This document shows, one piece after another, positions 28,248 through 58,412 of a stretch of DNA of 64,000 nt (within the stretch, counting starts at the first letter, position 1; every line of letters starts with the position of its first letter). The notes beneath the pieces are model-generated. The model did no database searches, had not been told where the DNA came from, and saw only the letters and a program-made list of their open reading frames with translations. The stretch comes from Phycisphaerae bacterium (GTDB lineage: Bacteria > Planctomycetota > Phycisphaerae > UBA1845 > CAIVHJ01): NCBI GenBank assembly GCA_022072405.1, contig JAJVHX010000022.1:22618-86617 (forward strand). Direction: 5' to 3'. Position numbers and translations under genes: made by a program.

Positions 28248-29926
28248 TCAATGAAACCCCTAACCTGCGCAAACCCACCATACTCATCATTGATGATGAC
28301 GAAATATTCGTCGAATTACTCAGCGACGAATTGAATCCCTATTTCGTAGTGGAATGGGCGCGGGATAGCCGGACTGCGTTACGCGCTATCGAACGGCAGA
28401 CGCCGGACTGCATTTTTCTCGACCAGAATCTGCCCGATCTGCTCGGGGTGCAGCTGATAGATGAAATTCGTAAGCTCGGCTGTGCCACGCCGGTTGTCAT
28501 GCTCACGGCTTCGCAGGATGTGCGCGTCGCTGCCGGAGCCATGCGCGCCGGCGCCGTCGATTTCGTGGTCAAGGATATCAATGAAGCGTTTTATGAAGAT
28601 CTGGTTCCCACTGCGATACGTGCAGTAGAAAAATGGAACAATGAGAAGGAACTGGACTACCTTCGAGATCAACAGCAGGAGCAGAACTCTCGAACATTGC
28701 AGTTGAACAACGAATTGGTGCAGAAAAACCGGGAATTGGAGCAGGCCTACGAAGACATAGCCGCCGCAGGTCAGCAACTGCAGAAGAAAAATCAACGCCT
28801 TTCGGAACTGTATGACACGGCGCATCGCTTTGTCGATAACGTGTCACATGAAATGCGCACACCGCTGACCGTGATCAAGGAATTTCTGGCGATTGTCATG
28901 GATGGCCTCGCCGGACCGATCAATGATCAGCAGGGCGAATATCTCCAGATTGCCATCGCCAAGACCAATGATCTGGCCCAGATGGTTGAGGATATGCTCG
29001 ATATCAGCAAGATTGAAGCCGGCCTGTTGCGGGTGGACCGCCAATGCTGTCAGGTCAACGACATTGTCTGCAGTATTCACCAGATCCTGGAACAGAAATC
29101 GCGCAGTTACCATCTGGAATTAAATTTTGAAGCGCCTGCTGATCTGCCTCCCGTCTACTGCGATCAGGAAAAAGTGGGACGCATTTTAATCAATCTGGTA
29201 GTCAATGCCATGAAGTTTTCACCGGAGGGCAGCCAGGTCCGGGTCTGCTTCCAATTGGCTGACACGAACGATGAAGTGCTGGTTAAGGTGTGCGATAATG
29301 GACCGGGCATTAGCCCGGAGCACCTGGAAGTCATCTTTGATCGCTTTCGCCAGGTGGGCGAGGGAACGCGCACCAGCACGAAAGGCTTTGGCCTCGGACT
29401 CAGTATCGTGCGCGAACTGGCCAACCTGAATCTCAGCGATGTTCGGGTCCAGAGTACCGTCGGTCAGGGCAGCACCTTCAGTTTTTCTCTACCGGTGTAT
29501 AACCCCCTTAAAATTATTGATCGATTCCTTCAACGTCATCATACCTATGCGCATCATGGTCAGAATCTGACTATCCTGCGCGGCTGGTGCGAACAACCCT
29601 CTCCCGAAATCAGCCAACATATTCGCAGCTTTGTCGTCCACCATTCTTCACCCTATGACCTCTGCCTCGAACAACCGCAACAGGGAATGGTATTGATACT
29701 CACCCTCGTTAATGATCCGCAGTCATATCTGCAGCGCTTATTATTGCATAATCGCGAAGAACTGCGCCTGTCTCCGGGAAGTACCGTGAATTTGAATTTT
29801 GAAATTCTGAAAACCTGGCCGCTGGAATCAAATCGACAGCGCCTGATTCAAGAAATACAAACGTGGGTGCCCGATACCACGATGGAGCAAGCGGATGTCC
29901 TGTCAACGCATCTTTATCGTGGATGA
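28244..29926 (+). CDS. Receiver-histidine kinase fusion (REC, coiled coil, HisKA, HATPase_c, C-terminal extension)
   Basis: REC with DFVVKD; H-box VSHEMRTPL; CDNGPGIS, GFGLGLSIV. 4-bp overlap with the upstream HK. Confidence 0.85.
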   Translation: MINETPNLRKPTILIIDDDEIFVELLSDELNPYFVVEWARDSRTALRAIERQTPDCIFLDQNLPDLLGVQLIDEIRKLGCATPVVMLTASQDVRVAAGAMRAGAVDFVVKDINEAFYEDLVPTAIRAVEKWNNEKELDYLRDQQQEQNSRTLQLNNELVQKNRELEQAYEDIAAAGQQLQKKNQRLSELYDTAHRFVDNVSHEMRTPLTVIKEFLAIVMDGLAGPINDQQGEYLQIAIAKTNDLAQMVEDMLDISKIEAGLLRVDRQCCQVNDIVCSIHQILEQKSRSYHLELNFEAPADLPPVYCDQEKVGRILINLVVNAMKFSPEGSQVRVCFQLADTNDEVLVKVCDNGPGISPEHLEVIFDRFRQVGEGTRTSTKGFGLGLSIVRELANLNLSDVRVQSTVGQGSTFSFSLPVYNPLKIIDRFLQRHHTYAHHGQNLTILRGWCEQPSPEISQHIRSFVVHHSSPYDLCLEQPQQGMVLILTLVNDPQSYLQRLLLHNREELRLSPGSTVNLNFEILKTWPLESNRQRLIQEIQTWVPDTTMEQADVLSTHLYRG

Positions 29927-30290
29927 CGATCGCCAGGTTTCGCTGGCTTTGTGTATTCGGCTGAAAGCCAGCGGATACGATGTGGCTGCGGCTTTTGATG
30001 GTGAATCAGGCCTCCAGCAGATGCGCCAGTATGTCCCGCACCTGGTCCTGTTGGACATCCGTCTGCCCGGAATCGATGGAATCGAAGTGATGCAGCAGAT
30101 GAAACAGGATGGCGATTTATCCCAGATACCGGTGATCTTTGTCTCCGCTAATGCCCAGGAAAAATCACGCCGTGCCGCCTTGCAGGCGGGAGGGCGACTG
30201 TTTCTGGAAAAGCCTTTTGATGCCCGTACGCTTTTGCAGGCGATTCAGAATGTATTGAATGAGCAGCCGCAACCCGGAGCCCATGCATGA
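29895..30290 (+). CDS. Single-domain response regulator (CheY-like REC)
   Basis: REC fold with phospho-acceptor Asp in LVLLDIRLPGIDG. Confidence 0.85.
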   Translation: MSCQRIFIVDDDRQVSLALCIRLKASGYDVAAAFDGESGLQQMRQYVPHLVLLDIRLPGIDGIEVMQQMKQDGDLSQIPVIFVSANAQEKSRRAALQAGGRLFLEKPFDARTLLQAIQNVLNEQPQPGAHA

Positions 30291-31129
30291 ATTCCCCACT
30301 CATTCTGATCGCTGATGACGACCCGATGCTGGTGCGTGTGCTCAGCGTGCGCTGTCAACACCTGGGTTGCGCGATTGAAACGGCAGCCGAGGGGCGGGAA
30401 GTGATCATTCGCATTCATCAGCATCGTCCAGACCTGATCATCATGGATCTCGACATGCCCAACAGCAGCGGTTTGAATATTTACGAAATGCTGGCGGCGG
30501 ATATGCGGTGGCGGACCATTCCGGTGATCATTCTCAGCGGGCAGCGTGATAATCGATCACGGGCCCGCGCGGAAGAACTGGGAGCGCGCTGGGTGACCAA
30601 ATCGCCTGATTGCTGGGCGGAGATTCGTGAGTACATCCAACAGGTCTTACAGCTATCCGGGTCAGGCTGCTATAAAAGCCAGACCGGTGAACAGCTGGTT
30701 GATGAACCGGCAGGTAAATCTGCTGATGCCCGCCCACTGATCCTGGTGGTGGATGACGATCAAGCGGTTTCGCGCGCTATTGATATTCGTCTGGAAGCGA
30801 ATGGTTATCATGCGGTATGTGCGCGCAGTGGCGCCCAGGCCTTATTCCTCGCCCAGGAACGAAAGCCGGCGCTGATCACTCTCGACCTGGGGTTGCCGGA
30901 AATCGATGGGTTGCAGCTCCTGCGTAGCCTGCGTGATGACCCAGCCACCCAGTCGATTCCCGTGATCGTGTTAACCGGCAATACCCAGACGCAGGTACGG
31001 GAAGAGTTTCAGCGGTTGGGAGTGGCTGCCTTTATGACCAAGCCATTCAGTACCCGCGATGTTTTGCGCCGGATTGAAGAGATACTCGGCATGGCCGATC
31101 TCACCGTTCAAAAAGGAAAGTTGTCATGA
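30287..31129 (+). CDS. Response regulator with two tandem REC domains, no output domain
   Basis: Two REC units (LIIMDLDMPNSSG; LITLDLGLPEIDG). Confidence 0.8.
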   Translation: MNSPLILIADDDPMLVRVLSVRCQHLGCAIETAAEGREVIIRIHQHRPDLIIMDLDMPNSSGLNIYEMLAADMRWRTIPVIILSGQRDNRSRARAEELGARWVTKSPDCWAEIREYIQQVLQLSGSGCYKSQTGEQLVDEPAGKSADARPLILVVDDDQAVSRAIDIRLEANGYHAVCARSGAQALFLAQERKPALITLDLGLPEIDGLQLLRSLRDDPATQSIPVIVLTGNTQTQVREEFQRLGVAAFMTKPFSTRDVLRRIEEILGMADLTVQKGKLS

Positions 31130-31956
31130 CGACATCAACAGCCCTGCTGGTCAAACGCATCCTGATTGTTGACGACGAGGAAAATGTCGTCCGCGCTTTG
31201 GCCATTCGTTGTCAGCAGCTGGGACTCCTGGTCGACAAAGCCAATAACGCTCTCGAAGCCCTGACCATTCTCAAACGAGAGCCGATCCCACCGGACCTGT
31301 TGCTGCTGGATTTTAATATGCCCGGTGCCGATGGCTTGACCCTCTGTGATATGTTGAAAACGGATACCACTTTGGCACCGCTGCCGGTGATTCTGCTGAC
31401 CGCCTATGATAATGACCAGATTCGTCGCCGTTGCGAAATGCTGGGAGCCTACTACGTCCGCAAAGATGTCGATGCCTGGAAACAGCTCCAGAAAATCATC
31501 TCGCGATTGCTGGATTTACCGAATGACGCATTACCCGAGTCAGCCGTCCGCTATGAACGCTCCCATGAACCTGCATCTCCCGCAACGTCTGCGGGAAAAA
31601 TACTGGTTATTGATGATGATCCGATGATGATTTCGATGCTGAAAACGCGATTAAAACATAATGGTTATCAGGTTATTTCAGCCATGAGCGGCATGCAGGG
31701 TTATTGGTTGGCCATCAAGGAAGAGCCGGATCTCATTTTGCTCGATTTCAAAATGCCCAATGCCTGGGGAAACACGATACTTGGAAAACTGAAATCAGAC
31801 CCGCTCACCCGTAAAATTCCTGTGTATATCGTCTCGGGCATTTCCGACCTTGGTTTACAGCGCGATGTGCTGCGTCTGGGGGCTATGGCGTGGATTACAA
31901 AACCATTTGATAGTGGCGAGTTACTTAAAATTATTCAAAAGGAATTGGCACGATAG
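31126..31956 (+). CDS. Response regulator with two tandem REC domains, no output domain
   Basis: Two REC units (LLLLDFNMPGADG; LILLDFKMPNAWG). Confidence 0.8.
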   Translation: MTTSTALLVKRILIVDDEENVVRALAIRCQQLGLLVDKANNALEALTILKREPIPPDLLLLDFNMPGADGLTLCDMLKTDTTLAPLPVILLTAYDNDQIRRRCEMLGAYYVRKDVDAWKQLQKIISRLLDLPNDALPESAVRYERSHEPASPATSAGKILVIDDDPMMISMLKTRLKHNGYQVISAMSGMQGYWLAIKEEPDLILLDFKMPNAWGNTILGKLKSDPLTRKIPVYIVSGISDLGLQRDVLRLGAMAWITKPFDSGELLKIIQKELAR

Positions 31957-32035: not shown

Positions 32036-32731
32036 ATGACAGCCTATATCAAAATCGAATACATATTCACTTTTTCTGATCGGAGCAAAGTTAGCCATCT
32101 TGTCATTATTGACCCCGAATCTTTGGAATTGGTTGAAGACGAGGTGCCGACCGATGCATGGTGCCGGCTGGAAAATCATCAGTGCCCCAATTGCCCTTTA
32201 AATAATCAACATTCCTTTTGTCCAGCAGCACAAAGTGTCGCCATGATGGCGAAGTCATTTACCGGCTGTCATTCCTATGATCCGGTTCAGATCACTGTTA
32301 ATACTTCCAGCAGGACCATTTCTCGGGAAGGTACTCTTCAGGAAGGGATACAATCCCTCATGGGCCTGCGAATGGCAGCAAGTGGCTGTCCCGTCATGGA
32401 AAAACTTAAACCAATGGTCCGCTTCCATCTACCGTTTGCAGATACCAGCGAAACCATCTATCGGGCCATTTCCATGTATCTGGTCAGTCAGTTCATCCGC
32501 ATGAAAAAAGGATGGGCGGCTGATTTTGATTTGAATGATTTGCAATCCATTTACGAAGATATTCATCAGCTCAATCTGGCATTCAGCAAGCGGCTTCGAC
32601 AAGCCAGCGAAGGAGACGCCAACGTGAATGGAATATGTATACTTGATATTTTTGCCCAGCAGATTCCCTGGGGAATTGAACATGCCCTGGATGACCTGCA
32701 ACCCATTTTCAATCCCTACTTACATCCCTGA
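32036..32731 (+). CDS. Hypothetical protein (231 aa) with a CxxC plus scattered Cys/His, no recognised domain
   Basis: Intact ORF with good coding bias, 80 bp downstream of the phosphorelay operon. Confidence 0.45.
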   Translation: MTAYIKIEYIFTFSDRSKVSHLVIIDPESLELVEDEVPTDAWCRLENHQCPNCPLNNQHSFCPAAQSVAMMAKSFTGCHSYDPVQITVNTSSRTISREGTLQEGIQSLMGLRMAASGCPVMEKLKPMVRFHLPFADTSETIYRAISMYLVSQFIRMKKGWAADFDLNDLQSIYEDIHQLNLAFSKRLRQASEGDANVNGICILDIFAQQIPWGIEHALDDLQPIFNPYLHP

Positions 32732-32876
32732 AATATTACACAACTCAATATAGTAGTATTTTGAACATATTTGACGAATTCTACTTCTAACGTCATATTT
32801 CTGTAGCTGTACATCTCCCAATGTCCATGTCTGCCTGGTCGGAGCCATGGAAGTTATTCCTCTGGTAAGGATATTT

Positions 32877-33080
32877 ATGGAAGGCACAGTCAAGTGGTTC
32901 AATGATGCCAAGGGATTTGGCTTTATCAAACCGACCGATGGCGAGCAGGAGGTATTTGTCCATCACAGCGATATCGTGGCTGATGGCTTTCGCAGCCTGC
33001 AGGAAAATGATCGCGTGGAGTATGACCTGGTCAAGGGAGATAAAGGTCCCAAGGCCGTCAACGTTCGCAAGATCGGCTGA
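32877..33080 (+). CDS. Cold-shock protein (CspA family, S1-like CSD)
   Basis: MEGTVKWFNDAKGFGFI...VFVHHSDI, the RNP1/RNP2 motifs of CspA. Confidence 0.9.
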   Translation: MEGTVKWFNDAKGFGFIKPTDGEQEVFVHHSDIVADGFRSLQENDRVEYDLVKGDKGPKAVNVRKIG

Positions 33081-33159: not shown

Positions 33160-34470
33160 TCAATACATGGCGGAGTGGAGTGGTGCGGCATGTTGTACCG
33201 GATTTGCAGAACTATCCGCCACAGCAGCATTCGATAAGTTGGGCAGGCTTAAAGTAGCCCGCGTGCCGCCTGGCGACGGACAGCACAACGTCAATTCACC
33301 CCCTAAAGTCTGGGCGATACCATAAGAGATAGATAATCCCAGGCCGGTCCCCTGGCCGGGTGGCTTGGTGGAGAAAAATGGCTCAAATACACGGCTGAGA
33401 TATTGGCGAGGTATTCCGCAGCCGTAATCGATAACATCAATATGTAACCAGTTCAATTCGTTACGAAATTCCACCGCGATCGGCCCGCGCTGTTCCGTTG
33501 CGTCGGCTGCATTGACCAGCAGGTTGACCAGTATCTGGCTGATACTGCCGGAATCGGAATGAATGGTTAAAGGAATAGGCCACGGCTGGAATTTTATTTC
33601 CAGCTGTTTCATCTTGGAGAGTGAGGTCACGAAGCGAATCGCTTGTTGTATGGCTTCGTTTACGTTGATGGGAGTAAGTACCGCGGGTTGGCGCCGGGAA
33701 AGACGCAATAAGGATTCTACAATCTGGCTGCACTGGTGTACCTGCTGACTGACTTCATTGATACACTCTAGCACTTCCGACTGATGTTGTGACAGAGATT
33801 CGGGAAGCAGGATCAGATCCTTGGCTAAGCCAACCTGGCTGGCGATCGCCGCCATGGGATTATTGATCTCATGGGCTACCCCCGCAGCCAGCTCGCCGAT
33901 GGCGGCCAGTTTTTCGCTTTGTCGAACCCGTTGCTCCAGTTGCTTTCGATGGGTCAGATCACGACCAATACAGACAATAGCCGGGGAATGTTGCCGGAAT
34001 GATTTTAATTGAAACAGCGTGACCAGGTGAATTCGCTCATGACCATTTTCCAGCCGCTGAGTGATTTCGCCGCTCCATTGTTCATTTTGTGTGATGGTGG
34101 TAATCAGTCGGTCCCGGTCATCAACCGTCAGGCCGATTCGCGTCAGATTCTCATGGCCGGATGGTGTTTCGGAAAAGCCAAAGGCCCGCTGGGCGCTATG
34201 ATTGGCGTAGAGAATATGTCCAGTTGCGGTAGAAATCACGATTGCATCGGTACTATGATCAACCACATTTCCGAGTTGTCTTTTCTCGGTTTCTTCGCGA
34301 CGATAATCCTCATCCCAGCGGATGACCGCGTAGAGCAGGAGCGCAATAATCAAGGCCACCGCCGTACCGCTTAACAGGGCCCCGAAGGGACTCAGTTGTG
34401 TCCAGGCTGCTGACTGAGCCGTCAGCAACAGAAAAACCATGATGGGTAATGTCTTCTTAATCACCCGCAT
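33160..34470 (-). CDS. Membrane PAS sensor histidine kinase
   Basis: 2 TM, PAS domain, H-box AAGVAHEINNPM, HATPase G-boxes DYGCGI, GTGLGLSI. Confidence 0.85.
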   Translation of the reverse strand: MRVIKKTLPIMVFLLLTAQSAAWTQLSPFGALLSGTAVALIIALLLYAVIRWDEDYRREETEKRQLGNVVDHSTDAIVISTATGHILYANHSAQRAFGFSETPSGHENLTRIGLTVDDRDRLITTITQNEQWSGEITQRLENGHERIHLVTLFQLKSFRQHSPAIVCIGRDLTHRKQLEQRVRQSEKLAAIGELAAGVAHEINNPMAAIASQVGLAKDLILLPESLSQHQSEVLECINEVSQQVHQCSQIVESLLRLSRRQPAVLTPINVNEAIQQAIRFVTSLSKMKQLEIKFQPWPIPLTIHSDSGSISQILVNLLVNAADATEQRGPIAVEFRNELNWLHIDVIDYGCGIPRQYLSRVFEPFFSTKPPGQGTGLGLSISYGIAQTLGGELTLCCPSPGGTRATLSLPNLSNAAVADSSANPVQHAAPLHSAMY

Positions 34471-35021
34471 AGCAGTTCAAACCACATCAAGTAAATGGCA
34501 CTCTTCTCTCATTGGAAATATACGTTACGAAGTAAGCAGTATCGAAATGCTCCCAGTGCAGCTGACTGATTACGAGACAGTTCGACAGACGTAAGTGTAT
34601 GATTATGATGCAGATGCGACATGTTAATCTAGGCAGTAGCCGATGAGTTATCGTCCTATGTCCATATTCGACAAATAATTATATCAATCGTGATCACAAT
34701 GTTCAGCTCGGTATCAAATGTGCTATAGATCAAATGAACGGAGTCGGCTGATCCCCATACCGACCGGGGTGCAGCAGTCATTGTGAATTCTTTCGTACTA
34801 TCAGCCAGGATGACCCACCTGGCTGATTCTGTTTTATGAATTGTTAAATTTCACTTATCAAGCGGTTAGCTATTGCCAGAACCTGCCGGAATTCACTAAT
34901 ATACCAGCATCTGAAATAACCCTAATGGATATAGTCACAATCAAGTGTTAACGTTTGGTTAATATGCGTTTTTAGCTTCTACGCTTGAGTTGTTGAGTTA
35001 CCAGCAGAAAGGATGAGGCAT

Positions 35022-35336
35022 ATGAGTAAAAAGGAAGTAAATATAAAAGGTCATGTCGACCTGGCTCAGGCGATAGCTTACCTGGAAGACCTGGTCATCA
35101 GCTTGAAAAGTGGCACGATCTGTGTGCAGAACTGTGAGGATTATGTTACCCTCAATCCGGCCAGTGGCTTGGAAATGGAAGTTGAAGCCAAGCATAAGGG
35201 GGAGAAGGAATCGCTCACAATCGTACTGAACTGGCAGACACAGAAGGAAGAAACTGAGAAACGCATGGAATTGCGGATCAGCTCGACCCAACCTGTGACC
35301 GCCGGTGCCACGGACGACGAAGATGAGGATGATTAG
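35022..35336 (+). CDS. Small 'amphi-Trp'-like domain protein with strongly acidic C-terminal tail (…GATDDEDEDD); first gene of the GAK-like cassette
   Basis: About 105 aa. Conserved Trp embedded in LTIVLNWQTQKEE; resembles the amphi-Trp domain as I recall it. SD aggatgagg upstream. Confidence 0.55.
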   Translation: MSKKEVNIKGHVDLAQAIAYLEDLVISLKSGTICVQNCEDYVTLNPASGLEMEVEAKHKGEKESLTIVLNWQTQKEETEKRMELRISSTQPVTAGATDDEDEDD

Positions 35337-35414
35337 GACTGTAGTCCTCATCCCATTAAATTCCCATCTCCAACTGCGGCGCACCCATATTCCTGCCCAG
35401 CTGAGTCTGATACC

Positions 35415-36722
35415 ATGTCGGCTGACAGCCGTCATGAATTAGCTGACCGCACTGGGCCGAACTCTACTTCACCCATCCGGCAGCTGGGCGGAATCGGCAG
35501 CAGCATTATTCGATCGGGGAGAGGCTATCAATTTCCTTACGGTGGTCTTGTGGCGAAGAAAACCAGCGAAAAACAACATGGTGCAACATTGCTTCCATCG
35601 ACCCTCCGCAGTGGTGCTGAAGAGATAACCGAGTGGGATCAGCAAACCTATCTGAAATTGATTTCCGTTGATCTGACTCCCGAGCAGGAAAATCGCATCA
35701 CGCATACCGACCAGATCTATCCGCGCCAGGAGGCGGTTCTGGCGGTCCACTGGCATCCGGAGTTTGTACCGCTGCAGCCGATTCGCCAGCGACTACAGAC
35801 CATGTTTCCCAGCCGCCAGACGGAACTGATTATCCCCACGCAGCATAATATTCTACAGAGCTACGACGACTTCAGCGGTGTGGAAGTAGACTGCTATTCA
35901 ACCAGTTTTAATCGCAAAGTACAGCTGCTGATTCATTTTCATCGCCCGCGCATCGATCAGGCGGATGTTTTTAAGAGCATGCTGTTGCACACTTTTCAGT
36001 ATCGTTCCCGTCAGCTCTTCGAGTTTATTGAAACGATCATTAATCCGCTGTACGAAAAGCGATTACAACGGGCTGCCGATATTACTGGCGCGGATGAGGA
36101 TCTGGTGGAATTCACCCGGCTGCACACCGTCAAATTGAAAAAACTATACCTGCGTAATGAGGGTATCACACCGGCACAAGCCATCAAGAATAAACTACTG
36201 TCGCAATATTTTGAGACGCTCATCGACCTGTTTGATGAACATCTGGTTCATCATGCCTTGTTGCTGCTGCGCTCGGTCAAGGAAATAGTAAAAGCCAATT
36301 TCAACCTGGAATATTTTTATCAAACCGAGGAAATCATCGAGGAGGTTCGGGCTTTGGGCGGCGGAATTGTCATTCCCCATCCCGAGCAATTTTGGCCGAT
36401 CCTGCTGGCTGAATACGATGTGGATGGTTACGAAGTCTGGAATCCGCAGTCGCGTGATTATACCGAATTTCTGATTCAGGTGGTCGATCGTCAGAACCGT
36501 TCACCGCTCAGCCGCAAACGCCCGCTGCTGATCTTTATGGGTGATGATTGTCACATGGGTGAAAAGGTCAAGGAACCGCGTTATCAAGATCCCGAAAAAG
36601 CGGGGCGCGAAGTGGGCGTACAACCTGCCTGGGATGATCTGGCGATTCGCAAGAGTCTGATTGTAGCCAATTGCGATCGCCGCACGGTAATTGAAGAATA
36701 TCGCCAGCGCCTGCTGGCTTGA
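35415..36722 (+). CDS. Hypothetical 435-aa protein of the cassette. Candidate 'XXXCH'-type GAK component (C-terminal MGDDCHMG)
   Basis: Long intact ORF translationally coupled to the next gene. No known catalytic motif recognised. Confidence 0.5.
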   Translation: MSADSRHELADRTGPNSTSPIRQLGGIGSSIIRSGRGYQFPYGGLVAKKTSEKQHGATLLPSTLRSGAEEITEWDQQTYLKLISVDLTPEQENRITHTDQIYPRQEAVLAVHWHPEFVPLQPIRQRLQTMFPSRQTELIIPTQHNILQSYDDFSGVEVDCYSTSFNRKVQLLIHFHRPRIDQADVFKSMLLHTFQYRSRQLFEFIETIINPLYEKRLQRAADITGADEDLVEFTRLHTVKLKKLYLRNEGITPAQAIKNKLLSQYFETLIDLFDEHLVHHALLLLRSVKEIVKANFNLEYFYQTEEIIEEVRALGGGIVIPHPEQFWPILLAEYDVDGYEVWNPQSRDYTEFLIQVVDRQNRSPLSRKRPLLIFMGDDCHMGEKVKEPRYQDPEKAGREVGVQPAWDDLAIRKSLIVANCDRRTVIEEYRQRLLA

Positions 36723-36736
36723 GGAAGGATGGCATC

Positions 36737-37027
36737 ATGGGCCCAGCCGCTCGCGAATTTCAGCACGATTCCTTTCAGGACCGGGAAACCATCGTGCACT
36801 ATTTATCCGCGCTGGGCGAAGCGTTTCGACAGGGACAACTGGTCCTCTCCTCGCAGGGTGAGGATTTCCTGATCGATGCTCCGGGGCTGATGCGCTTTAC
36901 CGTTCGGGCCCGGCAGCGGGGGGATCGGGCGCAGATGGTACTGAAATTCAGCTGGAAGAACCGTATTAAAAATGACGATTTTCGCGTCGGGCCGATCTCT
37001 CCGCGGCGCGAGGATGAATCGCGCTAA
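36737..37027 (+). CDS. Second small 'amphi-Trp'-like domain protein. ATG at 36737 preferred over the TTG at 36719
   Basis: Shares the pattern seen in the first small protein (…LKFSWKNRIKND). Strong SD gaggaagga before ATG 36737. Confidence 0.5.
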   Translation: MGPAAREFQHDSFQDRETIVHYLSALGEAFRQGQLVLSSQGEDFLIDAPGLMRFTVRARQRGDRAQMVLKFSWKNRIKNDDFRVGPISPRREDESR

Positions 37028-37030
37028 CCC

Positions 37031-38665
37031 ATGTTCAAACTGGACGGCATAGAGAAAAATTTTAAATTCATGACCTGGGAGGTCACCAAGCAGGTGGAGT
37101 TGACCTATCGGATCATGGATCAGCCGTCGCGCGGCCTGATTCGCAAAATTCTCTCCAGCGACAACTATATCGATACGATGAAAAGCCTGATCGAAAAGAA
37201 GTGCCTTTCCTATTACCGCAATCATCCCACCATAGATAAACAGACCGCGGATACCATCCGGGCGGTGACCGTCGTCGCAACCAACCTGGAAAAAATTGCC
37301 GATTATTGCTCCAACATCGCCAATAGCATGCAGAAAATGGATGATTCCGCCTTCATGGCGCGATTTGAATATCAGCCCTATTTTGAGCAGATTCTGCGGG
37401 CTTTGGAGGTGGTGCCGCCTGCTTTCGATGAACGTGATTCTGCGAAGGCCATCAAGATCTGCCAGTACGAGACACATCTCAACAAGTTGTATGAAGCGGA
37501 CTACGAACGAGTCCGCCTGGCCATGCGCCTGGGGCGCGACACGGATAATCTGCTTATCGCCTTGCGGATCCTGCATTATCTGGAGCGCATGGGCGATGCG
37601 CTGCTCAATATCGGCGAAGCCATTCTCTTTGCCCTGTCCGGCGAAAAAATGAAGTATCATCAATATGTCTCGCTGGATGAGGCGATGCATACCGCCAATC
37701 CGCAGACGGAAAATTATTCCGTTGATTTTAAATGGGAGACCCGATCGGGAGCACGGATAGGCAAAGTGGCTGATCATTCTGCCGAGAGCAACGGCGGCGA
37801 AGCGATTTATAAGGAGGGGGCCGCCGACAAACTCCGCCGTGAACGCGACAGCATCCAGCAGTGGAATACGTTCTGGCCTGGCCTGCCGCCGAAGGTGCTG
37901 GAATATCGCGAGGGCAACGGAGATGCTTCATTGCTGCTGGAGTTTCTGGATGGCTTCACTTTCCAGGAAATGATCCTGAATGCTGATCCCGACATGCTGC
38001 TCAGTGCACAGAATTGCATTCATCAGGTGCTGCAGAAAATATGGACCACTACGCTCGAAAATCAATCCATCAGCACCAATTATATTGGCCAATTGCAGGA
38101 GCGGATCGACGATGTATTTCGCGTCCATCCCAATTATCGCCGCACCCGCCAGCGGCTCGGCCGGCTGGAGATCGAGTCCTTTGAGGAATTGCTGATCCGG
38201 GCTGGTGAATTGGAGACTCAGCTGCCGGCGCCGTTTTCAGTATTTATCCACGGGGATTTTAATATCGACAACATCATCTATAACCCCCGCCACGAGCGCG
38301 TCCATTTTATTGATCTTTATCGCTCCAAACGCTGGGATTACGTGCAGGATGTATCGGTTTTTTTAATTTCCAATTACCGCATCCCGATTTTCGAGCCGCG
38401 CCTGCGTCAGCGTTTGAATGTCATCATGCAGACTTTTCTGGAATTCACCCGTTCAGTAGCCCGGCAGCTGCCGGACCATACCTTTGATGCCCGGCTGGCC
38501 TTGGGCCTGATCCGATCGCTGGTCACTTCGACGCGGTTTGAACTGGACAGCTGGTTCTCGGGCCAGATGTATCATCGGGCGATTTACCTGCTGCATAAGC
38601 TGATAGACCATCATGACCGACCCTGGTCGGAATTCAGGATTGTGGACGACGTGCTGATTTTTTAG
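37031..38665 (+). CDS. Fusion protein: N-terminal PhoU-like domain (two PhoU repeats) plus C-terminal aminoglycoside-phosphotransferase/protein-kinase-like fold
   Basis: PhoU repeat signatures NYIDTMKSLIEKKC…TNLEKIADYCSNIAN and LRILHYLERMGDALLNIGEAI. Kinase-like Brenner motif FIHGDFNIDNIIYNP and downstream FIDLYRS…D. Confidence 0.6.
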   Translation: MFKLDGIEKNFKFMTWEVTKQVELTYRIMDQPSRGLIRKILSSDNYIDTMKSLIEKKCLSYYRNHPTIDKQTADTIRAVTVVATNLEKIADYCSNIANSMQKMDDSAFMARFEYQPYFEQILRALEVVPPAFDERDSAKAIKICQYETHLNKLYEADYERVRLAMRLGRDTDNLLIALRILHYLERMGDALLNIGEAILFALSGEKMKYHQYVSLDEAMHTANPQTENYSVDFKWETRSGARIGKVADHSAESNGGEAIYKEGAADKLRRERDSIQQWNTFWPGLPPKVLEYREGNGDASLLLEFLDGFTFQEMILNADPDMLLSAQNCIHQVLQKIWTTTLENQSISTNYIGQLQERIDDVFRVHPNYRRTRQRLGRLEIESFEELLIRAGELETQLPAPFSVFIHGDFNIDNIIYNPRHERVHFIDLYRSKRWDYVQDVSVFLISNYRIPIFEPRLRQRLNVIMQTFLEFTRSVARQLPDHTFDARLALGLIRSLVTSTRFELDSWFSGQMYHRAIYLLHKLIDHHDRPWSEFRIVDDVLIF

Positions 38666-38691: not shown

Positions 38692-39564
38692 GTGCGAATC
38701 GGCGTGATTGGTATCAAGGATGGATGGTCTTCGCATCAACTGGCCGATGCCCTGGCCAAGAAAACCGGATTCCACTGCCTGATTAATATGGATGAAGTGG
38801 TCCTGGATCTGGAAAGCGGTCATGCCTATTACCGCGATCTGGATTTGGCCACACTCGATGCCCTGGCGATCAAGAAGATCGGCGCTCCTTATTCTTCCGA
38901 TCTGCTGGATCGACTGGCAATTCTGCAGTTTGTGCAGCGGGCGGGGGTGCGGATGTATTCCGATCCGGGGCGGATCGAGCGTCTGCTCAATCGTCTCAAT
39001 TGCACTTTGTCGATGCGTCAGGCGAATATTCCTCTGCCACCCACGACCATCACGGAGAATATCGCGCAGGCTGAGCAGGTCGTGCGTCGCTATGGTCGAG
39101 CGGTACTGAAGCCGCTCTATACCACCAAAGCTCGTGGTATGACGATGTTGACCGTTGAGGATAATATTCGTCCGGCACTGGAACAGTTTCGGGATGCCGG
39201 CAACACCGTCCTTTACATTCAGAAAATGATGAATCTGCCTGGCCGGGATATGGGGTTGGCTTTTCTGGGTGGTGAATACCTCGGCTGTTATGCACGCGTG
39301 CGCAGCAAAGGCTCCTGGAACACGACAACTCACTCCGGAGGAACGTATGAAGCATTCGATCCGCAACCGGCCATTATCGAACTGGCTCTGCGCGCTCAGG
39401 AACCGTTCGGATTGGATTTCACCTGTGTTGATATCGCTGAAACGGATCAGGGGCCGGTAGTATTCGAAGTTTCAGCCTTTGGCGGATTTCGTGGTTTGCA
39501 TGAAGCTTGTGGCCTGAATGCGGCCGAGTTGTTTGCTGATTATGTGATCGCGCAGGCCAGTTAA
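38692..39564 (+). CDS. ATP-grasp ligase (RimK/CofF/MptN-like alpha-L-glutamate-ligase family)
   Basis: RimK-like N-domain and ATP-grasp core (RYGRAVLKPLYTTKARGMTML…TCVDIAETDQGPVVFEVSAFGGFRG). Confidence 0.75.
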   Translation: MRIGVIGIKDGWSSHQLADALAKKTGFHCLINMDEVVLDLESGHAYYRDLDLATLDALAIKKIGAPYSSDLLDRLAILQFVQRAGVRMYSDPGRIERLLNRLNCTLSMRQANIPLPPTTITENIAQAEQVVRRYGRAVLKPLYTTKARGMTMLTVEDNIRPALEQFRDAGNTVLYIQKMMNLPGRDMGLAFLGGEYLGCYARVRSKGSWNTTTHSGGTYEAFDPQPAIIELALRAQEPFGLDFTCVDIAETDQGPVVFEVSAFGGFRGLHEACGLNAAELFADYVIAQAS

Positions 39565-39574
39565 GGGGCAGTGC

Positions 39575-40663
39575 ATGACCCACATTGATACGCTCATTGA
39601 TCGATTGCTGCAGGAACAGCCGGTGACGGAGGCGATCAATCTCTCGTTCGCCAACTGCACGATCCGGGTGCAATCTGATTCTTCAACTTTAATCACGCAG
39701 TTGAGACGATACTATGAACCGTTCGTGACCTCCGTTGATCACCCGGAAATAATTATTACCGCATTAGAGCGGCCGGAGGTGGATTTGAAGCTGACTTACC
39801 AGCCTAAAGCACCGGAACCCAATAAGCCTAAAATCAAGGAAGAATACGTAGATCTGCCCGGTGGACGTGTGGTTCGTAAACGGCTGACCGGGATGCATTT
39901 TATTTTTGGCGGCGGGCGGCACCTGACGATAGGCCCCTGCGTCGCGAATGACAATCAGGTTATCAATTTCATCAACAACCGTTTCATGGCCTGGAAACTG
40001 CGACAGGGATGTCTGCTCTATCATGCGGCCGCAGTGGCCACGCATGGCCGGGGGGTGGCTTTGTCGGGTTTTTCCGGCATGGGTAAATCAACATTAGCAT
40101 TGAAGATTATGAGTCTGGGGGCTGATTTTGTCAGCAATGACCGGCTGATGGTGCAGGGAACGGGGCCGACACGTACTATGTTTGGTGTTCCCAAACTGCC
40201 GCGCATCAATCCGGGAACTATTCTCAACAATCCGAATCTGTTGCAACTGCTGACGCCGGAAGAACAGCAGCGCTTTTCCGCACTCAGCCGAGATGAATTA
40301 TGGAAGCTGGAACACAAATATGATGCCTATATCTCGCAGTGTTTCGGTCCGGGACGTTTTCATTTGCAGGCGGAGATGCAGGGGCTGATTGTGCTCAACT
40401 GGCAACGAAGTTCACAGCCCTTGCAGATCCGACGCGTTGATCTGGACCGGCGGCAGGATTTGATGCCGGCTTTTATGAAAAGTGTCGGCTTGTTTTTCGG
40501 GGCTGACCCGGAAGAATTCACTCTGGAGGCACCCGCCGAGCATTACCTGGCGCAACTGGTGAAGCTGCCGGTCATTGAATTGACTGGTGGCGTGGATTTC
40601 GGCCAGGCAGCGGAATGGGTCTGGCGGACGATGCAATCTGGAAACTGGTCAGCGCTAACATGA
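39575..40663 (+). CDS. HPr-kinase-related P-loop kinase (HprK C-terminal-domain-like)
   Basis: LHAAAVATHGRGVALSGFSGMGKSTLALKIMSLGADFVSNDRLMV parallels the HprK motif HGV…GVLI.G.SG.GKSE.AL.L…G..LV.DD. Confidence 0.75.
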   Translation: MTHIDTLIDRLLQEQPVTEAINLSFANCTIRVQSDSSTLITQLRRYYEPFVTSVDHPEIIITALERPEVDLKLTYQPKAPEPNKPKIKEEYVDLPGGRVVRKRLTGMHFIFGGGRHLTIGPCVANDNQVINFINNRFMAWKLRQGCLLYHAAAVATHGRGVALSGFSGMGKSTLALKIMSLGADFVSNDRLMVQGTGPTRTMFGVPKLPRINPGTILNNPNLLQLLTPEEQQRFSALSRDELWKLEHKYDAYISQCFGPGRFHLQAEMQGLIVLNWQRSSQPLQIRRVDLDRRQDLMPAFMKSVGLFFGADPEEFTLEAPAEHYLAQLVKLPVIELTGGVDFGQAAEWVWRTMQSGNWSALT

Positions 40664-56259: not shown

Positions 56260-56301
56260 CAGACTTTAGAGGTCTGTAGCAGGTTCGACTCCTGCACACC
56301 A
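56260..56301 (+). other. tRNA-like remnant: anticodon-arm-like hairpin (CAGAC-TTTAGAG-GTCTG) plus canonical T-arm (GCAGG-TTCGACT-CCTGC) plus ACACCA, abutting the tRNA-Met 5' end
   Basis: T-loop consensus TTCGAnT and 3' ...CCA, but no D-arm or 5' acceptor strand can be paired. Confidence 0.4.
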
Positions 56302-56375
56302 TGCAGATAGCTCATGGGTTAGAGCAAACGGCTCATAACCGTTGGGGAGCGGGTTCGAATCCCGTTCTGCAGCCA
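56301..56375 (+). tRNA. tRNA-Met/Ile2 (anticodon CAT)
   Basis: D-arm GCTC-ATGGGTTA-GAGC, anticodon stem AACGG/CCGTT with loop CTCATAA, T-arm GCGGG-TTCGAAT-CCCGT, acceptor ATGCAGA/TCTGCAG (1:72 A•G mismatch). Ends uncertain by ±2 nt. Confidence 0.65.
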
Positions 56376-58074: not shown

Positions 58075-58122
58075 GCGGGTGTAGCTCAATTGGTAGAGCA
58101 TCAGCCTTCCAAGCTGGACGCT
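58075..58122 (+). pseudogene. Truncated tRNA-Gly(TCC): acceptor 5' strand, D-arm and anticodon arm intact; T-arm and 3' acceptor strand missing
   Basis: GCGGGTG-TA-GCTC-AATTGGTA-GAGC-A-TCAGC-CTTCCAA-GCTGG, then unrelated sequence with no T-arm. Confidence 0.6.
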
Positions 58123-58412
58123 GTCGTCCGATCCTCAAGTATTACAATAAGTAACGATTTAACAAGTACAATCCCCAGCAATAACCCCAGCAGTTGTACA
58201 CTGAATCAGATGATTGAAGCCGATCTGCAATTGCTGGTCGAGCGTTGGCCGGTGCTGCCGGCGGCGGTGCGGGCGGGGATCGTGGCGATGGTCAAAGCTT
58301 CCGAGGAGAAAAAAGAATGACCGGAGGGGCCCCCATCGACGGGCAGAATGTTTCCCGCACCCCCGGTCTTGCGAGCAAATGACCTCAACTTATTAACTCC
58401 CGGCCCGGAGCC

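Follow-up and report, generated by a model that had tools for sequence, protein, structure and literature searches.

A PhoU-kinase fusion protein in the GAK cassette of a Phycisphaerae bacterium and its conserved neighbours, a small amphi-Trp protein and a PHP-fold protein

We analyzed a window of 64,000 nt of a Phycisphaerae bacterium (contig JAJVHX010000022.1, positions 22,618 to 86,617), in which one gene codes for a PhoU domain joined to a kinase of the APH/ELK fold. Judged by its conserved residues, this protein, called PhoU-kinase below, is predicted to be an active kinase of this fold, and its first 205 residues make up an entire PhoU bundle of six helices. Although no family-specific model covers it, it belongs to the core of the GAK system (NCBIfam TIGR04354-TIGR04358), where it forms a nearly invariant trio with a class A amphi-Trp small protein and a 435-aa partner. 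The partner is a predicted enzyme having, in its structural model, the fold of PHP metal-dependent phosphoesterases. We hold the identity and the genomic context of the PhoU-kinase to be nearly certain. Neither domain is of a new kind, and public databases already contain proteins of this architecture without a name for it; new here are the PhoU-kinase as a core GAK component, the PHP-fold partner, the two classes of amphi-Trp proteins, a variant with swapped phosphatases and a linkage to Pho operons.

An earlier note on this DNA had read the gene as a fusion of two PhoU repeats to a C-terminal APH/ELK-like kinase with an HGDxxxxN motif and a downstream IDL. The open reading frame (ORF) and the four motifs it quoted were found exactly where it had placed them, and both domain assignments held. 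At the N-terminus, Pfam PhoU (PF01895) matched in two stretches with an E-value of 2e-21, and the NCBIfam model phoU_full aligned over aa 3-207. The score of this alignment, 77 bits, did not reach the equivalog cutoff of 130.25, nor did a second PhoU equivalog score (51 bits vs 342; the TIGR02135 / PRK11115 test). A profile of 33 homologues matched five crystallized PhoU proteins in the PDB with E-values from 1e-20 to 1e-13. Each repeat has its ExxxD motif: E87-D91 (EKIAD, nt 37289-37303) lies within NLEKIADYCSNIAN (aa 85-98) and E185-D189 (ERMGD, nt 37583-37597) within LHYLERMGDALLNIGEAI (aa 181-198). Both motifs were unchanged in 81/81 aligned family members.

For the C-terminal part, Pfam APH (PF01636) passed its gathering score (33.2 bits vs 23.2, E-value 6e-8) and EcKL (PF02958) matched with an E-value of 2.6e-7. 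The profile of 33 homologues matched APH(3')-Ia with an E-value of 7e-4. The Brenner catalytic loop HGDFNIDN occupies aa 407-414 (nt 38249-38272; H407-G-D409-x-N411-x-x-N414), and FIDLY, aa 426-430 (nt 38306-38320), contains D428 (nt 38312-38314), the Mg-binding Asp of the IDL motif. In the alignment to APH(3')-IIIa, the alphaC Glu E271 corresponds to E60 and N414 to N195, while D409 and D428 take the places of the catalytic Asp (D190) and the Mg-binding Asp (D208), respectively. The region of aa 206-255 has a conserved G204-E-K..K208 stretch and a Gly-loop-like segment T-R-S239-G240-x-R-I-G, in which S239 and G240 sit. K261 is, by position alone, the likely beta3 Lys. The residues S239, G240, K261, E271, H407, D409, N414 and D428 were invariant in all 81 aligned family members.

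An AlphaFold2 model of the PhoU-kinase had a mean predicted local distance difference test score (pLDDT) of 82.9; both domains were confident and only aa 206-255 were poorly predicted. Fold comparison agreed with the kinase assignment. Profiles and structure were also checked for the opposite outcome, and neither placed the N-terminus outside the PhoU family or the C-terminus outside kinase-like folds.

The C-terminal helical subdomain is the substrate pocket in APH enzymes, where acidic residues bind the cationic aminoglycosides. In the alignment of 81 members, the conserved residues of this subdomain were four arginines (R459, R488, R495, R502) against one Asp. This may point to an anionic substrate, since cationic aminoglycosides would call for the reverse charge; an acidic substrate such as the E/D-rich motif of the amphi-Trp protein would fit.

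The PhoU-kinase of the window matched, with 100% identity, a protein annotated as "hypothetical" in a Phycisphaerae metagenome-assembled genome. The best 120 database relatives were all of about 545 aa, nearly all with PhoU plus APH and/or EcKL matches, under labels such as "PhoU domain-containing protein" and [quoted passage not shown]. Relatives were encoded in at least 515 species-representative genomes from Planctomycetota (including an anammox genus), Desulfobacterota, Nitrospinota, Myxococcota, Acidobacteriota, Spirochaetia and candidate phyla. An exhaustive hidden Markov model search of 1.84 billion cluster representatives, with the threshold E ≤ 1e-30, gave about 320 clusters (50% identity); of the top 150, nearly all were full-length. 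With the family conserved at full length in hundreds of genomes, a gene-calling artefact is a poorly supported explanation. The fusion had been called unusual; that is right in the sense of unstudied and wrong in the sense of rare. The searchable literature held no account of a PhoU-kinase fusion, as the earlier note had supposed, and likewise no description of amphi-Trp function or of the GAK system, with the exception of one entry in a proteomics table. The NCBIfam scan returned no family-specific curated model for either the PhoU-kinase or the PHP-fold protein. One family member of 679 aa (P0362) has a His-rich insertion of about 100 aa between PhoU and kinase, with a weak match to a His-rich family; it could be a metal-binding linker.

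The neighbourhood was counted in 80 genome loci fetched via the PhoU-kinase, the denominators being the loci with enough flanking sequence. The order of genes was nearly constant: the 435-aa protein, amphi-Trp, PhoU-kinase, ATP-grasp, HprK-B and, optionally, the CofD-like protein and one further amphi-Trp protein. An amphi-Trp gene lay immediately upstream of the PhoU-kinase in 72 of 78 loci and the PHP-fold gene upstream in 69 of 75, while the ATP-grasp (68/76), HprK-B (56/71) and CofD-like (34/61) genes followed downstream. In the reverse search, the PhoU-kinase was present in 36 of the 39 metagenome loci that were fetched via HprK-B and had sufficient upstream sequence; it was absent from L083, L084 and L093. 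In L083, where the operon is split among housekeeping genes for RNase HI, AhpC, Pta and AckA, no alternative kinase had taken its place.

Two loci (L026 and L077) carried the PHP, amphi-Trp and PhoU-kinase genes alone, followed by unrelated genes (an opposite-strand PAS histidine kinase; an M48 peptidase with an acyl-CoA dehydrogenase). The trio is therefore the tightest unit of the cassette. ATP-grasp and HprK-B were likewise not downstream of the trio at the locus in L046, L051, L054 and L059.

The window has the co-located amphi-Trp, ATP-grasp and HprK-B genes, all above the cutoffs and in the usual order, that define a GAK cassette (Table 1); the earlier note's placing of the fusion in a cassette with small proteins is thus borne out. 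The 435-aa ORF ends with its stop codon inside the amphi-Trp ORF, whose own stop is separated by 3 nt from the ATG of the kinase. Junctions of 0-4 nt suggest co-translation. The CofD-like ORF overlaps HprK-B by 49 nt (40615-40663); its true start is probably downstream of the overlap, because the TIGR04357 match begins at aa 60.

Table 1. Genes of the cassette and domains of the PhoU-kinase in the window
Feature	Coordinates	Strand	Evidence or remark
Class B amphi-Trp small protein	35013..35336	+	TIGR04354, 53 bits vs cutoff 31; probable start ATG 35022
PHP-fold protein, unannotated, 435-aa ORF	35415..36722	+	Fold comparison
Class A amphi-Trp small protein	36719..37027	+	TIGR04354, 58 bits vs cutoff 31
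PhoU-kinase fusion gene	37031..38665	+	ORF, 544 aa, ATG start; Pfam PhoU (two matches) and APH/EcKL
PhoU domain, aa 1-205	37031..37645	+	Two three-helix repeats forming a six-helix bundle
Linker and start of kinase N-lobe, aa 206-255	37646..37795	+	Model pLDDT <50
APH/ELK-fold kinase core, aa 256-544	37796..38665	+	Catalytic residues and C-terminal helical subdomain
GAK ATP-grasp enzyme (RimK/MptN-like ligase)	38692..39564	+	TIGR04356, 428 bits vs cutoff 300
HprK-related kinase B (HprK-B; P-loop GFSGMGKST)	39575..40663	+	TIGR04355, 509 bits vs cutoff 200
GAK CofD-like protein	40615..41904	+	TIGR04357, 553 bits vs cutoff 340

The PHP-fold partner is the most conserved protein of the cassette, with 56-73% identity across phyla, and is named "hypothetical" in every source. 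It had no sequence match in Pfam (including PHP, PF02811), NCBIfam or the PDB. Fold comparison alone revealed the PHP fold, a distorted TIM barrel with putative HxH ... DxH ligands. Invariant motifs were HWHPE (112-116), PTQHN, E157xD159, H174, H192, PHPEQ (321-325) and MGDDxH (375-380), with H112xH114, H144, E157, H174, H192, H322 and D378xH380 as the invariant residues. A trinuclear PHP metal site, such as that of YcdX, has ligands of this number and kind, and the invariant residues of the partner are expected to suit a site of this type. Compared to PHP phosphoesterases (BAD_1165 3O0F, RNase AM 9ETK, YcdX, YwqE/CpsB), the partner lacks a detectable Pfam PHP or PDB sequence match and has a large helical insertion at aa ~184-300. 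Since its homologues are of about 386 aa, the first ~55-60 codons of the ORF are probably untranslated.

The amphi-Trp proteins fell into two classes. Class A always adjoins the kinase and has a near-invariant N-terminal motif F-x-[HY]-E-S-[LVI]-Q-D (FQHDSFQD in the window) along with an invariant Trp. In 74 class A sequences, the motif positions were F in 74, E in 63, S in 69, Q in 68 and D in 71. The class A start in the window is probably ATG 36737, behind the ribosome-binding site GGAAGGA at 36723-36729. Class B usually comes after CofD, but in the window it is the first gene of the cassette. It is without the class A motif and ends in an acidic low-complexity tail (...TDDEDEDD in the window). 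As an idea only, this tail might be a substrate of the RimK-like ATP-grasp enzyme. A sequence search returned no significant relative of amphi-Trp among solved structures. An apparent amphi-Trp "fusion" of 878 aa in L053 was a stop-to-stop ORF artefact of a high-GC genome, with the domain only at aa 737-810.

The XXXCH-domain protein (TIGR04358) is an optional member of the cassette, present in about 50 of 160 related loci and usually located directly upstream of the PHP gene (for example, at 7631-8275 in L071). It is absent from the window, where its slot is filled by the class B amphi-Trp protein. The N-terminal half of the XXXCH protein resembles the amphi-Trp domain, with Tyr replacing Trp (...VLVKIKIKYDDE).

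A variant of the cassette was observed in a Logan contig (SRR24236061, 3657-10917; locus L161). There the PHP gene is absent and a gene for a His_Phos_1 phosphatase lies directly upstream of the kinase. The kinase itself (P0296, 1009 aa) consists of an N-terminal calcineurin-like phosphoesterase domain, PhoU and kinase. The ATP-grasp, HprK-B and CofD genes follow, and the sole amphi-Trp protein, which begins with MAKDEFKHESLQD, is of class A. At the level of sequence, this locus looks like a non-orthologous displacement of the PHP phosphoesterase by unrelated phosphatase folds. The swap, with one of the phosphatases fused to the kinase, argues for a common target of the kinase and a phosphoesterase.

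In six Desulfovibrionaceae species (loci L071, L057, L036, L021, L058 and L010), a Pho-type cluster lies directly upstream of the cassette on the same strand. In L071 (3510-11647) a PhoB-like regulator comes first, followed by a PhoR/PnpS-like kinase, PstB, PhoU, the GAK XXXCH protein and the PHP gene; here PstB (418 bits vs cutoff 343) and PhoU (192 bits vs cutoff 130) are bona fide. This adjacency ties the cassette to phosphate signalling. We also observed that these six genomes encode a free PhoU and a PhoU-kinase side by side.

Given these patterns, we propose that the kinase and the phosphoesterase would work against each other, adding phosphate to a common substrate and removing it again. 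Most likely this substrate would be the adjacent class A amphi-Trp protein or else a ligand that the protein carries, bound or tethered; as candidate acceptors it offers the Ser within FxHESxQD and the S/T found six positions further on. The PhoU bundle, fused in cis, would gate the kinase by intracellular phosphate (or metal), much as free PhoU moves the histidine kinases PhoR and SenX3 between their kinase and phosphatase states. The ATP-grasp enzyme, the HprK-related kinase B and the CofD-like protein would then act on the same set of small proteins. For gating in cis there is a precedent, because canonical PhoU is a trans-acting modulator of kinases. Purified PhoU1 together with inorganic phosphate (Pi) shifts the histidine kinase SenX3 toward phosphatase activity, independently of Pst (PMC12301784), and, according to two further reports, PhoU binds the PAS domain of PhoR and represses autophosphorylation (PMC13577022, PMC9239213). 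The earlier note had suggested that phosphate or metal status is coupled to phosphorylation of the small proteins; the conserved trio and the pstB-phoU adjacency in one clade are consistent with such coupling. We give the PhoU-gated cycle as a whole a little less than an even chance, and consider it rather doubtful that amphi-Trp is the direct phospho-acceptor. Somewhat less probable again is the broadest version, a widespread signalling module in which a PhoU sensor in cis and a eukaryotic-like kinase would turn Pi status into reversible phosphorylation of an abundant small protein, independently of PhoR/PhoB, with the other GAK enzymes modifying the same set.

Several observations weigh against this proposal. 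The best candidate acceptor Ser was replaced by Ala in three and by Gly in one of the 74 class A loci with the kinase fully intact, and the S/T six residues after it (position 24) was present in only 67 of 74. The Ser is therefore not an obligatory site, which weakens the hypothesis of that specific Ser and the simple version of the coupling. We found no link between Ser-less amphi-Trp and a degenerate kinase, the kinase being intact in all such loci. The second kinase of the cassette, HprK-B, could act on amphi-Trp instead. It may be, too, that PhoU domains do not bind phosphate directly. Only one clade, with 6 of the 80 loci, shows the pstB-phoU adjacency, and the window contained no other PhoU-domain ORF and no pst/phoU neighbours of the cassette; its two histidine kinases and the receiver protein that was tested were not PhoR/PhoB equivalogs. 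The predicted template modelling score of the PhoU-kinase model was 0.58 and the pLDDT of the linker was below 50; the inter-domain geometry is thus not confident, and the model lends no support to gating in cis. No biochemical or genetic data on any family member were found in the literature.

A further point against a protein substrate leads to the main rival. The structural neighbours of the kinase domain were mostly small-molecule kinases (methylthioribose (MTR) kinase, fructosamine-3-kinase (FN3K), APH, PsiK, maltokinase), and the peptide or protein kinases (LxmK, CurKC, Bud32, YihE, Rio1) ranked lower. The PhoU-kinase could then be a biosynthetic kinase for a metabolite or a carrier-tethered substrate in F420-like or LysW/LysX-like chemistry, which the CofD-like and Glu-ligase-like enzymes recall; the amphi-Trp proteins would be carriers or scaffolds and the PHP enzyme a pathway phosphatase. 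However, the trio persists in L026 and L077 with no ATP-grasp, HprK-B or CofD nearby, CofD was found in no more than 34 of 61 loci, pathway kinases do not usually have a regulatory PhoU domain, and replacement of the phosphoesterase by two unrelated phosphatase folds, as in L161, is seen more typically with a regulatory antagonist than with a specific step of a pathway. We consider this explanation possible but unlikely. A different doubt concerns the PhoU bundle, which might be a metal-binding, dimerization or docking scaffold (for the PHP enzyme, HprK-B or amphi-Trp) and not a phosphate sensor, the kinase being regulated otherwise or constitutive. The invariance of the ExxxD motifs, the ligands of the metal clusters in PhoU crystal structures (1SUM, 1T72), speaks for it, as do the score of 77 bits, under the PhoU equivalog cutoff of 130, and the missing pst/phoU neighbour at most loci. 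Set against these points are the cassette's junction with phoB/phoR-like, pstB and phoU genes in six species and the documented role of canonical PhoU, which is Pi-dependent modulation of a kinase (PMC12301784); we think a mere scaffold improbable.

Two more familiar identities fit much less well. That the protein is a bona fide PhoU orthologue regulating Pst/PhoR, with an extra domain, would agree with the PhoU alignment over aa 3-207 and with PDB PhoU matches at 1e-20. On the other hand, both equivalog cutoffs were missed (77 vs 130.25 and 51 vs 342 bits), the invariant neighbours are GAK genes, and adjacency to pstSCAB occurs in one clade only, where a separate canonical PhoU above the cutoff exists. 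Instead of a stand-alone protein of ~210-240 aa in a pstSCAB/phoBR context, we see a 544-aa fusion flanked by amphi-Trp and ATP-grasp genes. We consider orthology very improbable. Least credible of all is an antibiotic-resistance kinase of the aminoglycoside/macrolide type. The top matches of the C-terminal half, by sequence and by Foldseek, were indeed APH(3') enzymes, but with an identity of 15-21%, and the APH(3') models (NF033068 and related), aligned at aa ~266-444, scored 28.2 bits vs an equivalog cutoff of 205. Moreover, the conserved residues on the substrate side are mostly Arg rather than acidic, and the chromosomal operon context is kept across environmental anaerobes. A role in anti-phage defence was rejected, as 0/7 cassette proteins matched PADLOC.

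Comparison with known systems places the proposed PhoU-gated cycle among them. With respect to PhoU proteins (P. aeruginosa 4Q25, S. pneumoniae 2I0M, M. smegmatis PhoU1), the PhoU here is fused in cis to its presumed target kinase, this kinase is of the ELK/APH fold and not a histidine kinase, the scores are below the PhoU equivalog cutoffs and pst genes are usually not encoded beside it. With APH/ELK kinases (APH(3')-Ia, APH(3')-IIIa, MTR kinase, fructosamine-3-kinase, choline kinase), the PhoU-kinase shares the bilobal fold, the Brenner HGDxxxxN motif, the Mg-binding Asp and the alphaC Glu. It differs from them in the N-terminal PhoU, in an identity of only 10-21%, in the Arg-rich conserved subdomain on the substrate side and in an operon with a phosphoesterase and small proteins in place of a resistance or salvage context.

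As to the GAK system, four of its families were found in the window above the cutoffs and in the usual order, yet the PhoU-kinase and the PHP-fold protein, which have no family model, are the ones most tightly linked to amphi-Trp. The pair of HPr kinase/phosphorylase and HPr offers a likeness of working and not of membership: phosphorylation of a small protein on Ser is proposed, under control of a metabolite or Pi, with a reverse reaction tied to phosphate, and an HprK-related P-loop kinase is found in the same cassette. Unlike that pair, the PhoU-kinase has an unrelated fold, and its small protein is amphi-Trp and not HPr. Peptide kinases with an APH-like fold also act on precursors of ribosomally synthesized and post-translationally modified peptides (RiPPs; class III CurKC 7WJ7, class V LxmK 9DK1), but the cassette has no lyase or cyclase partner. 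The amphi-Trp proteins, furthermore, are folded proteins of about 95 aa and not leader-core precursors. One of them, DITHS69_2464, was among the 20 most abundant proteins of Dissulfuribacter thermophilus in one growth condition (PMC13490349), and such abundance is unlike a typical RiPP precursor.

What PhoU senses and how it affects the output of a kinase is a question decades old, one reason being that signalling of the canonical kind depends on PhoU together with two membrane proteins, a transporter and a histidine kinase. A soluble single chain with PhoU and an ATP-dependent kinase would make PhoU sensing testable in vitro, with the neighbours as ready substrate and antagonist. For the GAK cassette, a conserved set of 6-8 genes that hundreds of environmental anaerobes carry (sulfate reducers, Planctomycetota, Nitrospinota, Myxococcota), such a protein would open a first way to its function. 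To specialists in phosphate signalling or bacterial kinases, a PhoU-ELK kinase in cis would come as a surprise.

The surroundings of the cassette in the window were examined as well. The intergenic region upstream of it (34471-35012, 540 nt) has a strong plus-strand hairpin followed by a T-run at 34800-34827 (10 bp stem, 6 GC pairs), which could be the terminator of an unannotated transcript or a leader element. A search of Rfam for a riboswitch or a known RNA upstream of the cassette gave no match at the gathering threshold in the whole window and none at E ≤ 1 in 34300-35500. Farther upstream (29895-31956 +, 32036-32731 +, 33160-34470 -) there are three tandem REC-only proteins (two of them double-REC), a DUF6901 protein (262 bits) and a PAS histidine kinase. 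The DUF6901 gene and a cold-shock protein gene (32847-33080) were not conserved beside the cassette in other genomes.

On its other side, the cassette is followed immediately (42000-44316, +) by the two genes of an NADPH-dependent glutamate synthase; one codes for a FAD/NAD-binding subunit of the PRK06222 type (385 bits), the other for a subunit of the GltA type (TIGR01316, 580 bits, above cutoff). Finally, a possible tRNA fragment was seen at 58075-58132 (+), where 58 nt gave a weak tRNA-like match (31.6 bits, gathering score 29); a normal tRNA lies 1.7 kb away, at 56301-56373.

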